Assembly: GCF_000092465.1 (NCBI RefSeq)
Contig: NC_014205.1
Location: 1,260,001-1,292,000 of the forward strand
DNA length: 32,000 nt
From: Staphylothermus hellenicus DSM 12710
Lineage (GTDB): Archaea > Thermoproteota > Thermoprotei_A > Sulfolobales > Desulfurococcaceae
Reading direction: 5' to 3'
The position numbers were made by a program, and so were the translations under genes. Below, piece after piece: positions 829 through 19,844 of the stretch; position 1 is the stretch's first letter, and the number at the start of each line of letters is the position of its first letter. A model generated the notes under the pieces. That model did no database searches and was not told where the DNA came from. It saw nothing but the letters and a program-made list of their open reading frames with translations.

Positions 829-1074
829 GTGTCTAGTAAGAAAGTATTGTTTGAAGGAGTGATTGTAGGGTTCGAATCCCCACCGGGATACTCTGATCCA
901 GCCTTGTTTATTCAAGGATCAATAAATAATGAAACAGCGTCTTTTTACCTATTGATCCCGAGAGAGAAGCACAATGAATATATGAGGTTAGGGGTTGGAC
1001 AAATGATTAGTGGTAGAGGCGTAATTGTTTCAACTGAACCCCTTATAATAAAGCTGATCGGAGATGAAGAATAA
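829..1074 (+). CDS. small hypothetical protein (81 aa, GTG start)
   Basis: ORF-track ORF that overlaps the next ORF by 11 nt, an operon-like arrangement. Typical AT-rich codon usage. No recognisable motif. Confidence 0.45.
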   Translation: MSSKKVLFEGVIVGFESPPGYSDPALFIQGSINNETASFYLLIPREKHNEYMRLGVGQMISGRGVIVSTEPLIIKLIGDEE

Positions 1075-6643: not shown

Positions 6644-6663
6644 CCTAGTAATTACTAAGCGAT

Positions 6664-6800
6664 ACGCGCCATGGATAGGCAGCCCGGGAACCCTGCGCCC
6701 TTTTATCCCCCATTATAGGGGTTTACACTCGAACCGGGTCAAGGGGCTCCGCCTCAATGTCCCGGGCAATGCAATCATTATTTTGCCCGGCTCGTCCCCG
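6664..6800 (-). other. 23S pre-rRNA processing stem, 3' strand (trailer)
   Basis: Complementary to 10010-10108. For example, 6666-6685 pairs with 10087-10106 (20 bp; the single mismatch is a G-U only in the rRNA-sense strand), 6711-6725 pairs with the CCUCCAUUAUAGGGGG block near 10050-10065, and GGCGGAGCCCC pairs with GGGGCUCCGCC. An extra hairpin CCGGGCAA-[AU-rich loop]-UUGCCCGG at 6763-6791 branches from the stem. Confidence 0.7.
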
Positions 6801-6807
6801 GGTGAGT

Positions 6808-10008
<3,201 letters not shown>

Positions 10009-10009
10009 C

Positions 10010-10108
10010 GGGGACGAGGGGCGGAGCCCCTGCCCGGTTTCGACCAGTGCCCCCTATAATGGAGGATTACCGGGCACAGGGCCCCTGGGCTACCTATCCA
10101 TGGCGCGC
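10010..10108 (-). other. 23S pre-rRNA processing stem, 5' strand (within the 16S-23S spacer)
   Basis: Pairs with 6664-6800 (see that feature). The spacer 10009-10431 contains no tRNA. Confidence 0.7.
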
Positions 10109-10215
10109 ATCGCCCCCCGTTAACTAAGCCTAAACCATCTAAGCATCAAGGGGGGCTCGCGCCCTTCACACGGAACCAATTCATGGTTCCGTGTTGCATC
10201 GGGCAAATATGTAGT

Positions 10216-10251
10216 GAGGGGTCGAAGCCGGAGAGGAACAATACAACCCCC
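10216..10251 (-). other. 16S pre-rRNA processing stem, 3' strand
   Basis: Perfect 36-nt reverse complement of 12084-12119 (gaggggtcgaagccggagaggaacaatacaaccccc). A further complementary block follows (aggtgttctccca, about 10312-10328 versus about 12032-12044). Confidence 0.85.
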
Positions 10252-10431
10252 ATCCCCTATTATTTTAAGTGTCTTGTTGAAGACCCAAGCCCCATTCAAG
10301 AGGGGGTGTATTGGGAGAACACCTAAGGCCCCCTCATCTAGAACGGGGACAATAATGTTTTTATCAATGGGAAGAGGGAGGATTATCCACCTCTACGACC
10401 CCTTTGGAGCCCCGGCCCTTGCCCGCAGGCG

Positions 10432-11940
<1,509 letters not shown>

Positions 11941-12083
11941 TTGCGGCCGCAAGGGGGCGGGGCTCCTTTTAGGGGTCGTAGAGTTTGTGGAGCCCCCCTC
12001 TTCCCATAAAGCATACTCTATAGTGTTCGGGGGCAGGTGTTCTCCCACCCCCTGTGTTGAGAAGGGGGTGTGTTTTCCGGGGA

Positions 12084-12119
12084 GGGGGTTGTATTGTTCC
12101 TCTCCGGCTTCGACCCCTC
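12084..12119 (-). other. 16S pre-rRNA processing stem, 5' strand (leader)
   Basis: Perfect 36-nt complement of 10216-10251. Confidence 0.85.
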
Positions 12120-12244: not shown

Positions 12245-12262
12245 ATTTATATATATTATGCC
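12245..12262 (-). promoter_or_regulatory. candidate rRNA operon promoter (TATA box)
   Basis: The minus-strand sense reads GCAUAAUAUAUAUAAAUCCC, the first strong TATA-like element upstream of the 16S leader stem. No transcription start can be proven from sequence. Confidence 0.3.
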
Positions 12263-12368
12263 TCATGATCATTTAATCACATATTGAAACAAAGCGGTGC
12301 AAGTGGGATAACAATGTCCACAATAAACATATACTACCATGGAAAAACATGTCTACCCAAATAATAAA

Positions 12369-12458
12369 CAATGTCCCCGCGGCAGGAGACCGCCCCCTCA
12401 TCCCTCCCGGGCTAAGCCCGGAGTCGGGGCGATGCCGCCGCCGGGAAGCCGCGGGGCC
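12369..12458 (-). ncRNA. candidate single-hairpin H/ACA-box guide sRNA
   Basis: An isolated roughly 90-nt GC-rich island in AT-rich intergenic DNA. In the minus-strand sense the layout is as follows:
- a 9-bp lower stem CCCCGCGGC / GCCGCGGGG;
- an internal loop (pseudouridylation-pocket-like): 5' side UUCCCGGCGGCGGC, 3' side CUCCU;
- an upper stem AUCGCCCC / GGGGCGGU;
- a K-turn-like pair of motifs (CGA opposite GGAUGA);
- an apical hairpin CUCCGGGC-UUA-GCCCGGGAG.
ACA follows immediately after the lower stem (12374-12372), 14 nt from the top of the pocket. TATA-like elements lie upstream at 12468-12476 and 12486-12495. Confidence 0.55.
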
Positions 12459-12580
12459 ATAAAATACTTATATAAACAGCCAGCCTAATATAATACCCTC
12501 CCACCACTGTTTCAAATCCCTACAATGAATAGCCTAGAATAAATAATTGATGCAACAATCCTTCTTCCCACTATCGTACT

Positions 12581-12602
12581 CTCAATTTTCCTAGATTGTT
12601 TC
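12581..12602 (-). repeat. solitary inverted copy of the CRISPR-like repeat
   Basis: ctcaattttcctagattgtttc is the reverse complement of gaaacaatctaggaaaattgag. That is 21 consecutive matches to the repeat at 12828-12851, in the opposite orientation, 225 bp away. Confidence 0.6.
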
Positions 12603-12827
12603 TATTCTTTGTATTTCATTGTTTATTTTTATTTATTTTTCTAGTATTTGTGTTTTGTCTTTGATGGTTGGTGGTGTGTAATTGGTTTGATGAGGATCTA
12701 CATTTGTGGCGTCATCCCTGACTCGGGTAGGTAGTGTATTGTATATGGTTTCCCAAGGATCTCTAGAGCTATCATTGCATATACCGGGAGTATTCTAAGG
12801 CTAGCACCTGCTTCAAGTATCATGCTA

Positions 12828-12913
12828 GAAACAATCTAGGAAAATTGAAAGAGCTCTATGTAGGCCTTAGACTTAACCGGTGGCCTCTCGAAACAATCTA
12901 GAAAAATTGAAAA
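12828..12913 (+). CRISPR. orphan CRISPR-like mini-array: 2 repeats and 1 spacer
   Basis: Repeat 1 is 12828-12851, GAAACAATCTAGGAAAATTGAAAG (24 nt, ending in the ATTGAAAG typical of crenarchaeal repeats). The 38-nt spacer is 12852-12889. Repeat 2 is 12890-12913, GAAACAATCTAGAAAAATTGAAAA (22/24 identical, degenerate like a terminal repeat). An AT-rich leader-like tract lies upstream. No cas genes are in the window. A MITE with terminal inverted repeats is an alternative reading. Confidence 0.45.
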
Positions 12914-12923
12914 ATGTAGGGTG

Positions 12924-13015
12924 TGGAGCCGCCGCCGGGATTCGAACCCGGGACCTCCGCCTATCCAGGATAGAGTTACCAGGGCGGCGCTCCAACCAGG
13001 CTGAGCTACGGCGGC
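12924..13015 (-). tRNA. tRNA-Thr (GGU) with 14-nt canonical intron; CCA encoded
   Basis: Cloverleaf: GCCGCCG-UA-GCUC...GAGC-G-CCGCC-CUGGUA[intron 12976-12963, ACUCUAUCCUGGAU]A-GGCGG-AGGUC-CCGGG-UUCGAAU-CCCGG-CGGCGGC-U-CCA. The BHB central helix is CUGG/CUGG with 3-nt bulges. Confidence 0.9.
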
Positions 13016-14114: not shown

Positions 14115-14885
14115 ATGAATAAATTATTTAGCATTATCCTCGTACTGGTTATTGCTGGTTTTCTAATTATAAGTACATCCGGTGTTAATTCGCCTCAAAA
14201 CATTAATGCTCACGAGCCTGAAATACAAGAAATAATAAAGAATAATGTGCCAATATATTATCTAGGCCATGATCTCCGTGAACTCCAGAAAATATTTGAA
14301 AATATTTATCCTCTTCAAAACAAGCTTCCAATAGGAACACATATATTAATCGTTGAGGGAGCCTATGCTAGTAAACACATGGAAGCCGAGGAGATCATGA
14401 GAGAGGAGCTTCTTAGAAGCGTTCCCATCATAATCATTAATGGCCATACAGAAATACTGCGTTCAATAATACCTTCAGATTTTAAACCCGAAATCATTAA
14501 TGGGAGATCACCTATTAATGAAACGGTGAATGAAGCAGTTTATGGATACCTAGTCTATTCCACTAAAAATGCTCTCGTACAAAGTGTGTTTATTTCAACA
14601 GATCCAGGGGAAGAAGGAATTATAGAAGCATATAAATGGGCTGTTCGAAACACTGTTTCCGTTAGCCATACACCTAATCCTAACATAGTAGACTCAACGT
14701 ACAAAACTGAAATATATCAGTTAAGTATTTCCACAGGCAACAGCTGGTTTCCCTACGGGAGATTAGAAGTTGCAACACAATATTATAAGTTGATCAATGA
14801 TTATTCAAATACTTATGACTGGTATATTGCTCATATTATTCAACAATCCGTTCCAGGAGATAAGATCTGGGGCAGAAACGTATAG
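14115..14885 (+). CDS. hypothetical secreted/membrane-anchored protein (possibly the 5' part of a disrupted gene)
   Basis: N-terminal signal/anchor MNKLFSIILVLVIAGFLIISTSG. The ORF ends right at the start of an AT-rich plus GC-rich insert-like region. See the finding on 14871-15166. Confidence 0.6.
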   Translation: MNKLFSIILVLVIAGFLIISTSGVNSPQNINAHEPEIQEIIKNNVPIYYLGHDLRELQKIFENIYPLQNKLPIGTHILIVEGAYASKHMEAEEIMREELLRSVPIIIINGHTEILRSIIPSDFKPEIINGRSPINETVNEAVYGYLVYSTKNALVQSVFISTDPGEEGIIEAYKWAVRNTVSVSHTPNPNIVDSTYKTEIYQLSISTGNSWFPYGRLEVATQYYKLINDYSNTYDWYIAHIIQQSVPGDKIWGRNV

Positions 14886-14980
14886 TGTTGCTTTCGTAAT
14901 ATTTATATGCTGTTGTTTCAGGGAGGATTTATATATGTGTTTATTATATGTGTTTATCTAGATATTTTGTTTGATGATGA

Positions 14981-15165
14981 GGCTTTGGATCCCGCGCTCG
15001 ATATGTAGGGGTAAGCTAAGCCCGAATGGGCGCGGGTTTAGAAGTATCCGAAGATGTGGGGAGCACTCCGTTCCCCCCGAAAGCCCCTCAATGAAGATGG
15101 GAGAGGGGAAGGCTAGCCGTAGCAAAAACAACAAAAGTTACGGCTAACCAGAACGGTTCTGGTTG
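14981..15165. other. GC-rich structured element of unknown class (ncRNA or MITE-like insert)
   Basis: A local GC island between two AT-rich ORFs. On the + strand a closing stem GGCUUUGG (14981-14988) / CCGAAAGCC (15077-15085) encloses GGAUCCCGCGC...GCGCGGG..AUCC and GGGGA...UCCCC hairpins. Further elements are hairpin UAGCCGUA (15114-15121) / UACGGCUA (15139-15146) with an A-rich loop, and the palindrome CCAGAACGGUUCUGG (15148-15162). It is bracketed by UGAUGAUGA (14972-14980) and CUGA (15174-15177). Strand not determined. Confidence 0.4.
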
Positions 15166-15178
15166 GAGAACTGCTGAC

Positions 15179-15598
15179 ATGTATACATGGATAGATGTAG
15201 ACCATTATAACTCTAATTATATGCTTACAAATTATGATCCCACTACAACTCTAAAAGCCTCCACAGTAACTATTACAGTTTTTCCTCCAGTCCTAAGTAT
15301 GGAGAACCAATTGCCATATTCATGGAGTTATCCAGCAAGCAATGTCCACATAATCGATCTAAGCGATTATTCATTGAATCTAGCTAAGTGGTGGCATAAT
15401 ATAGCTGAAGATACAGATCTAGGCTCTACTGTTTATCGTATCGAGCCAGGAGCATTGATCAGGGTTCCACAAGATTCACCTATTGATTGGCAAGAACACT
15501 ATGGAGTAAAATATGGCAGACAAACCAGTCTCTGGTGGTTCCCATGGTGGCACTACTGGGAATACACAGGTGAGGGATGGATAGAGGTTAAAGTCTAA
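15179..15598 (+). CDS. hypothetical Trp/Tyr-rich protein (possibly the 3' part of the disrupted gene 14115-14885)
   Basis: 139-aa ORF. The reading frame is open upstream to 15095 without a start codon. Confidence 0.55.
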   Translation: MYTWIDVDHYNSNYMLTNYDPTTTLKASTVTITVFPPVLSMENQLPYSWSYPASNVHIIDLSDYSLNLAKWWHNIAEDTDLGSTVYRIEPGALIRVPQDSPIDWQEHYGVKYGRQTSLWWFPWWHYWEYTGEGWIEVKV

Positions 15599-19736: not shown

Positions 19737-19844
19737 TGGGGCCGCGGGGATTTGAACCCCGGGTCACGGGGGCCCAACTCGGGCACTAGGTCCTATTTGG
19801 AGCCTAGTGTGCCCCGCATCCTAGCCAAGCTAGACTACGGCCCC
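19737..19844 (-). tRNA. tRNA-Pro (UGG) with 33-nt intron at non-canonical position 32/33; no encoded CCA
   Basis: GGGGCCG-UA-GUCU...GGAU-G-CGGGG-C[intron 19810-19778, ACACUAGGCUCCAAAUAGGACCUAGUGCCCGAG]UUGGGC-CCCCG-UGACC-CGGGG-UUCAAAU-CCCCG-CGGCCCC-A. The BHB is near ideal: central helix CGGG/CCCG, bulges GCA and AGU, and a 7-bp intron helix CACUAGG/CCUAGUG directly abutting. Confidence 0.75.

Follow-up and report, generated by a model that had tools for sequence, protein, structure and literature searches.

Crenarchaeal CRISPR arrays have repeats of 24-25 bp, spacers of 35-43 bp and leaders of 200-400 bp, and mature Sulfolobales crRNAs bear an 8-nt 5' repeat tag (PMC4390879). The adaptation genes of type I-A systems have a regulatory companion, csa3a, which has been described as lying on the reverse strand next to the adaptation cassette (PMC4333418). 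Degenerate orphan arrays are marked by large deletions and by collapse through repeat-repeat recombination, archaeal integrative elements insert and degenerate at tRNA sites, and some Sulfolobales plasmids bear small CRISPR loci (PMC4390879). The genus Staphylothermus is reported to have many small arrays at a distance from cas genes: in S. marinus, 9 of the 12 arrays, which comprise 5-17 repeats, are located away from cas (PMC2678158). By the count of the Cbp2 paper, S. marinus and S. hellenicus each have four types of repeat.

The locus described here lies in a stretch of 32,000 nucleotides from Staphylothermus hellenicus DSM 12710 that was analysed as a whole and is referred to below as the window. 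Sequence comparison indicates that positions 12579-12913 (Table 1) are very probably what erosion has left of a type I-A CRISPR-Cas locus. With the type I-A adaptation locus (csa1-cas1-cas2-cas4 plus csa3), as found in Sulfolobus islandicus REY15A, the relic shares the order csa3 fragment, leader end, first repeat, but it is without functional genes, 36 csa3 codons and ~97 nt of leader being left. Its 24-nt repeat ending in ATTGAAAG and its 38-nt spacer are likewise those of type I-A crenarchaeal arrays, although the arrays are down to one spacer and one solo repeat. Like locus F of S. solfataricus, which is leaderless and inactive, and like orphan arrays generally, the relic is far from cas genes, has a degenerate terminal repeat and bears signs of large deletions; unlike them it is far smaller, with three repeats in total, and keeps a cas pseudogene fragment. 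One spacer between two host-type repeats is also the arrangement of the mini-arrays of archaeal viruses and plasmids (pNOB8 and pKEF9), whose elements integrate and degenerate at tRNA genes (PMC4390879), and the relic too adjoins a tRNA. By contrast with these elements, it is accompanied by no integrase, att duplication or element genes, and its repeat was not found in IMG/VR. The relic is an ordinary genomic fossil of a known kind, neither a new system nor a transposon.

Table 1. Features of the relic and its surroundings (positions are those of the window).
Feature	Position	Strand	Remarks
23S rRNA	6807-10009	-	
16S rRNA	10431-11941	-	
Solo inverted repeat	12579-12602	-	GAAACAATCTAGGAAAATTGAGAG; 23/24 match, 1 mismatch (A22G)
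Truncated CRISPR leader, repeat-proximal ~97 nt	12603-12699	-	AT-rich; TATA-like AAATAAATAAAAATAAAC; aligns to L067 1406-1499
csa3 (CARF regulator) pseudogene fragment	12718-12826	-	36 codons, ~residues 65-100 of a 183-aa Csa3
Repeat 1	12828-12851	+	Exact 24-mer, 0 mismatches; heads the divergent one-spacer stub
Spacer	12852-12889	+	38 nt; 53% G+C vs ~36% for the genome
Repeat 2	12890-12913	+	2 mismatches (G13A, G24A); degenerate
tRNA-Thr(GGU), intron-containing	12924-13015 including CCA (Rfam 12927-13015)	-	Rfam tRNA 57.4 bits; anticodon read directly
Hairpin RNA-to-tRNA spacer, window			465 nt
Hairpin RNA-to-tRNA spacer, L003			~365 nt; contains a small, unrelated ORF
Hairpin RNA-to-tRNA spacer, L070			~76 nt

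When the window was scanned for the 24-mer GAAACAATCTAGGAAAATTGAAAG with up to three mismatches allowed, three copies were found, and no matches were obtained in 100 dinucleotide-preserving shuffles of the window. Two of the copies are direct and have a period of 62 nt from start to start, made up of a 24-nt repeat and a 38-nt spacer, so that two direct repeats of constant length surround a unique spacer of typical length. This pair, with its second copy degenerate at 22/24, had been proposed in an initial sequence-only reading of the DNA, and both copies were recovered by the scan; the accompanying claim of crenarchaeal CRISPR dimensions is borne out by the published ranges (PMC4390879). The third copy, which had been placed at 12581-12602 with 21 consecutive matches, is present and inverted but begins at 12579 and matches at 23 of its 24 positions. 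The arms of this inverted pair extend to 26 nt with 96% complementarity and are 221 nt apart. A gapped scan of the window yielded no extra degenerate copies above background, the next scores being at most 18 where unrelated window sequence scores 22-26, and an Rfam search of the repeats returned neither CRISPR-DR nor any other family. Repeat 1 is intact up to its 3' end, ATTGAAAG, and the 5' tag of a crRNA processed from it would be AUUGAAAG. Repeat 2 is without the final G of the tag (G24A).

The sequence-only reading had set the array between the rRNA operon and tRNA-Thr, and the 16S, 23S and intron-containing tRNA genes were all located accordingly, on the minus strand. Direct reading shows that CCA is encoded at 12926-12924, from which it follows that repeat 2 ends 10 nt from tRNA-Thr, the distance originally given. 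The T-rich antisense tract that had been noted in the degenerate repeat was seen as well: the minus strand has TTTTTCAATTTTTC at repeat 2, including ...ACATTTTTCAATTTTTCTAG, which provides two T5 runs past tRNA-Thr. These runs probably terminate tRNA-Thr transcription, as judged from the relative L003, which has a T5 run directly past the tRNA, and from the repeat 2 runs being the first ones here. Pfam analysis of the 20 larger ORFs of the window gave housekeeping genes only, with no cas, orc1/cdc6 or whiP gene, in agreement with the earlier statement that cas genes are absent from the 32 kb; a 36-codon csa3 fragment in the core of the repeat unit is the one cas sequence present. The G+C content outside the RNA genes is ~36%. 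The adjoining HAD phosphatase has its best similarity, 67%, to a Staphylothermus sp. MAG and is also similar to proteins of other Desulfurococcales. The window was reproduced at 100% identity by short k=31 Logan assemblies, made independently from two sequencing runs of the strain. They break at 12090, in the 30-nt inverted repeat of the 16S processing stem, and are unbroken across the whole repeat unit, which suggests that the core has no second high-identity copy in that genome.

Inspection of the core between the inverted repeats revealed a 41-codon minus-strand ORF (12698-12823) in which the csa3 fragment sits. In a 90% clustering of 15 billion proteins, this ORF forms a one-member cluster known from this locus only. 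A HMMER search of 1.84 billion representative proteins returned a sole non-repetitive match, P0160 (E 4e-6, 67% identity over 36 aa), for which pairwise BLASTP gave 3e-15. P0160 is a Csa3 of 183 aa, the type I-A regulator with a CARF and a winged-helix domain, and is recognised by Pfam Csa3_N (6e-19), PADLOC CARF3 (2e-44) and PADLOC Csa3 (5e-23); it also matches TIGR01884 (Csa3) with an E value of 1.5e-13 and 50.6 bits, which is under the curated cut-off of 60.2 bits. By itself, the fragment in the window matches the PADLOC CARF3 profile PDLC01850 (E 2.4e-4). No csa3 N-terminal or HTH remnant was detected by tblastn, and the recognisable residues are only ~65-100 of 183. Since a complete CARF domain and the C-terminal winged helix are missing, the window csa3 is a pseudogene fragment. 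The 5' end of repeat 1 lies at most 5 nt from this fragment, in mid-gene. An apparent reach of the csa3 homology into repeat 1 ("IVSS", 10/15 nt past a 15-nt gap) was judged not significant.

P0160 is encoded by a metagenomic contig, L067, on which csa3 occupies positions 675-1226. The order on this contig is csa1 (Pfam PF06023, 1.4e-28), which lies on the other strand, csa3, an AT-rich 274-nt leader, and then a repeat; in REY15A csa3a follows cas4, whereas in L067 csa3 is divergent from csa1. The L067 repeat, GAAACAATATAGAAAAATTGAAAG at 1501-1524, is identical to the window 24-mer at 22 of 24 positions and has the A13 of repeat 2. As the contig stops 10 nt past it, no second repeat can be seen, and the csa1/csa3/leader context suggests that a full array begins there. 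Through L067, the window repeat is thus linked to cas genes by a 22/24 relative that stands behind csa3 and a leader and beside csa1, with one repeat in view. This answers in part the refuting condition set by the sequence-only reading, namely that arrays of the genome and its relatives should be without the 24-mer.

The window and L067 share two colinear alignment blocks, one in csa3 and the other comprising leader and repeat. Within csa3, window 12752-12723 matches L067 938-967 at 27/30 positions. The second block is a local DNA alignment of window 12699-12577 with L067 1406-1526, which covers the last ~95 nt of the leader and the repeat. With the repeat left out, the leader block scored 42, compared with 28.4 +/- 4.3 for dinucleotide shuffles (9/1000 reached 42 or more) and a maximum of 31 over 390 control segments of the window; the leader homology alone is therefore moderately significant (p about 0.01). 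The leader stump stands directly before the solo repeat, matching the position of the repeat behind csa3 and leader in L067. As read from these alignments, the 225-bp core between the inverted repeats is a csa3 fragment joined to a leader remnant. The TATA-like tract of the stump, at 12630-12647 on the minus strand, lies ~30-45 nt upstream of the solo repeat and faces the hairpin RNA and the rRNA operon, toward which the retained leader end may plausibly still drive transcription. Upstream of repeat 1, direct reading found no leader and no recognisable TATA box, and antisense csa3 debris adjoins. The AT-rich, leader-like tract that the sequence-only reading had assigned to repeat 1 does exist, at 12603-12660, but it belongs to the inverted solo repeat.

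Searches for the repeat elsewhere returned no other array. With positions 13 and 22 left free, the otherwise exact repeat gave 0 matches in genome contigs, IMG/VR and JGI metagenomes, a pattern that was too strict in hindsight, the L067 relative differing at position 9. With three positions free, no other array came up among 185,579 species genomes, in the JGI metagenomes or in IMG/VR, the relaxed rescan of IMG/VR giving 0 matches. The sole match of the relaxed rescan, L068, falls inside a bacterial sensor-kinase ORF and was rejected as a chance match. As no further array with this repeat was found in the collections scanned, the repeat family is either very rare or poorly sampled. The repeat sequence was also absent from the literature by full-text search, the CRISPRmap and CRISPRstrand supplements include no Staphylothermus repeats, and a Cas2 search (SSO1404 aligned with SSO8090) yielded Sulfolobales-like matches only. 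For the spacer, a comparison with viruses and plasmids had been suggested at the outset; it produced no match, and no protospacer was found in 50,697 phage/virus records, IMG/VR, the window or the fetched loci beyond chance matches. The test is a weak one, given how few viruses of hyperthermophiles have sequenced genomes.

The geometry of positions 12579-12851 could also be that of a ~273-bp MITE with 26-bp terminal inverted repeats and an extra solo terminal repeat; the sequence-only reading had considered a MITE of roughly 270 bp with 21-bp terminal inverted repeats. Such an element would be kin to the S. marinus MITEs, and it deserves serious attention because S. marinus carries 14 copies of an inverted-repeat MITE of ~260 nt (PMC2678158), similar to the unit in size and in terminal inverted repeats as judged from the published description. 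The arms described above do form terminal inverted repeats, 26 nt long, 96% complementary and 221 nt apart. Between them, however, lie a csa3 fragment and a CRISPR leader remnant in place of parent-transposon sequence, and the arms themselves are the CRISPR repeat that also occurs behind csa3 and leader in L067. A MITE leaves the third copy, at 62-nt spacing, without a role. No second copy is present within the 32-kb window, and the one-member cluster formed by the 41-aa core ORF and the unbroken passage of the k=31 assemblies through the unit likewise speak against a multicopy element. No target-site duplication is evident in the flanks (...atcgta / agctct...), which is not decisive alone, some IS families making none. 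With cas-locus debris in the core, cas-associated arms, no target-site duplication and no other copy detected in the window or indicated by the strain's assemblies, we regard a MITE as highly improbable. Inverted sites around an AT-rich tract resemble archaeal origin architecture, and the inverted repeats here do flank such a tract, so that they might instead be protein-binding sites unrelated to CRISPR (like origin-recognition boxes, or operators) around an unwinding region or a promoter ahead of the rRNA operon. This is extremely improbable: no orc1/cdc6 or whiP gene is found in the window, the repeats are absent from the syntenic relatives, the motif has the crenarchaeal repeat tag at its end, and the csa3/leader/repeat homology with L067 explains the layout fully.

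Two further explanations accept the CRISPR nature of the repeats. The direct pair might still work as an orphan mini-array, its transcript being processed by the Cas6 of the host and serving type I-A or III effectors in trans; it would then be akin to the arrays of one or two spacers known from viruses and plasmids of archaea. In favour of this, the intact repeat 1 has ATTGAAAG at its end, as would a source of the tagged Sulfolobales crRNAs; conjugative plasmids of Sulfolobales, whose integration sites are tRNA genes, can carry small CRISPR loci (PMC4390879); and Staphylothermus genomes are reported to have cas genes and several arrays. Yet repeat 1 is without a leader or a TATA box and is adjoined by antisense csa3 debris, the unit is antisense to tRNA-Thr read-through, and the spacer has no target in the collections searched. 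The loss of the final G from the repeat 2 tag is minor for this spacer but is a sign of decay. A function of this kind is quite unlikely. It is distinctly unlikely that the pair is a secondary stub, made when Cas1-Cas2 put a single spacer at the solo repeat and duplicated that repeat in an ectopic or last-gasp acquisition. Two repeats and one spacer are the exact product of one integration, and repeat 1 and the solo repeat, which have G13 and a 5' flanking TA in common, are closer to each other than repeat 1 is to repeat 2. A fresh duplication should, however, have left identical repeats, whereas repeat 2 has two mismatches, and integration here would have had no leader to direct it. The A13 of repeat 2 matches the L067 family repeat, which suggests that repeat 2 has an older and independent history.

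The reading of the relic as an eroded type I-A locus accommodates its layout as a whole. Along the minus strand, antisense repeat 2 comes first and is followed by the spacer, repeat 1, csa3 residues 65-100, the ~97-nt leader end and a single repeat. The ancestral layout would have been that of L067, with csa1 (and presumably cas1, cas2 and cas4) on one strand and csa3, leader and array on the other. Two arrays inverted around an adaptation cassette are the usual Sulfolobales layout, and a second, inverted array would have stood on the far side of the ancestral locus. We infer at least three deletions, and likewise their order and mechanism. One would have started at repeat 1, at its 5' edge, and reached csa3 codon ~64, removing the other leader and the adaptation genes; another, of ~420 bp between the homologous blocks, would have taken the distal leader together with the part of csa3 that encodes the C-terminal half; and a third would have removed the csa3-side array past its first repeat. 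A recognisable cas pseudogene fragment has been retained, which marks the locus as a decayed complete locus and not a dispersed array. Of the possibilities raised by the sequence-only reading, that of a decayed array is upheld by the 22/24 repeat behind csa1/csa3 and a homologous leader in L067 and by the csa3 and leader debris in the core. That of two divergent array remnants holds in that both stubs are present; the leader they were thought to share, ~97 nt long, belongs to the solo repeat. Because there are no cas genes, one stub is without leader or promoter and the other is without a spacer, the relic is most likely dead as an immune module.

Two relatives, L003 and L070, are syntenic with the window through 16S, a TATA-containing promoter common to all three (window 12245-12262), a GC-rich hairpin RNA, tRNA-Thr and the HAD gene, and neither holds a copy of the repeat. 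Contigs L065 and L066, from a sister strain, end inside the tRNA, and the intergenic comparison therefore covers L003 and L070. To judge from the lengths of the hairpin RNA-to-tRNA spacer in the window and the two relatives (Table 1), the relic is in a hypervariable spot directly past the tRNA 3' end. Given this position, the relic may have been brought in by an integrated element or island since lost. Such an origin is plausible, with tRNA-Thr as a possible former integration target; no remnant of an integrase, an att duplication or other element genes was found at the relic. A 13-mer, GCCGCCGCCGGGA, that occurs in both the tRNA and the hairpin RNA was considered as an att site and rejected, as it is also kept in relatives that have no relic.

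Parts of the relic might nevertheless have been co-opted, and not simply tolerated, as the tRNA-Thr terminator, as a promoter in the leader end, or through the spacer acting as an in-trans guide. We consider this unlikely. On a co-option view, the repeat-2-specific G24A lengthens a T run to five, and the promoter gives a solo-repeat RNA or reads into the conserved H/ACA-like small RNA and the rRNA operon. If any of this did occur, the remains of a CRISPR locus would now serve as housekeeping transcription signals where the rRNA operon begins.

The relic reveals no new mechanism. Its geometry shows that divergent array remnants can mimic a MITE, which calls for caution in the annotation of archaeal repeats and transposons. 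The spot past tRNA-Thr, which heads the single rRNA operon present in the window, is a variable site in this lineage. There, the relic provides a dissectable example of a type I-A locus eroding to a few hundred bp with its parts still recognisable.

The intergenic spacer directly 3' of tRNA-Thr was found to differ widely in length among syntenic relatives, measuring 465 nt in the window, ~365 nt in L003 and ~76 nt in L070, the latter two being relatives that share the 16S/tRNA-Thr/HAD gene order. In L003, the spacer contains a 64-codon ORF that is membrane-like and unrelated. On this comparison of sequences, the spacer looks like a site of recurrent insertion and deletion.

The rRNA promoter of the window was identical in L003 and L070. 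Near-identical counterparts of the candidate hairpin RNA were also present in both relatives, in a comparison of two to three sequences, which is too few for covariation; both counterparts carry an extra, lineage-specific apical hairpin. The candidate has a closing stem of 9 bp with ACA directly 3' of the stem, together with an internal GAUGA/CGA motif that is kink-turn-like. In these features, it resembles an H/ACA guide sRNA. The sole Rfam hint was a non-significant one to Pyrobaculum sR207 (E 8.3).

Coordinates of features in the window and of the equivalent spacers in two relatives
Feature	Position	Strand	Detail
Spacer 3' of tRNA-Thr	window 12462-12926		
Spacer 3' of tRNA-Thr	L003 566-931		
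Spacer 3' of tRNA-Thr	L070 ~864-939		
rRNA promoter	window 12245-12262	plus	TATA-containing, conserved; TTTATATATATTATGCC
Hairpin RNA candidate	window 12362-12461	minus	GC-rich, conserved; between CRISPR relic and rRNA promoter
16S processing stem	window 10216-10256 / 12079-12119		long inverted repeat, 41 nt, 95%
23S processing stem	window 6659-6721 / 10051-10113		long inverted repeat, 63 nt, 84%
tRNA gene	window 19737-19844	minus	39-nt intron; Rfam 46.8 bits, E 3e-9
Non-coding gap	window 14886-15178		~290 bp; flanked by ORFs 14115-14885 and 15179-15598

At least six tRNA genes are present in the window, only one of which was detected by ARAGORN. The intron-containing gene at 19737-19844 was undetected by that program and was absent from the gathering-mode Rfam scan of the whole window.

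GC-rich hairpins occur within the non-coding gap, as does TGATGATGA, which is C-box-like. A Pfam scan of the two ORFs flanking the gap returned no match. Both Logan assemblies of the strain stop inside this gap, at 15037-15042, which suggests either that the sequence is also present elsewhere in the genome or that there is an assembly problem.

Rescanning with a relaxed pattern of the 24-nt repeat (21 specified bases, for which ~1 spurious match is expected per scan) gave one match, L068 3227-3250. This was rejected as a true repeat copy, being a chance match inside a bacterial sensor-kinase-like ORF.

The metagenomic contig L067 (positions 1-1534; Logan SRR21462135) is a fragment of a type I-A adaptation locus, in which csa1 (on the opposite strand), csa3, a leader and a first repeat follow in order. 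The contig stops 10 nt past the first repeat, as would be expected if the sampled population were polymorphic in its leader-proximal spacers.
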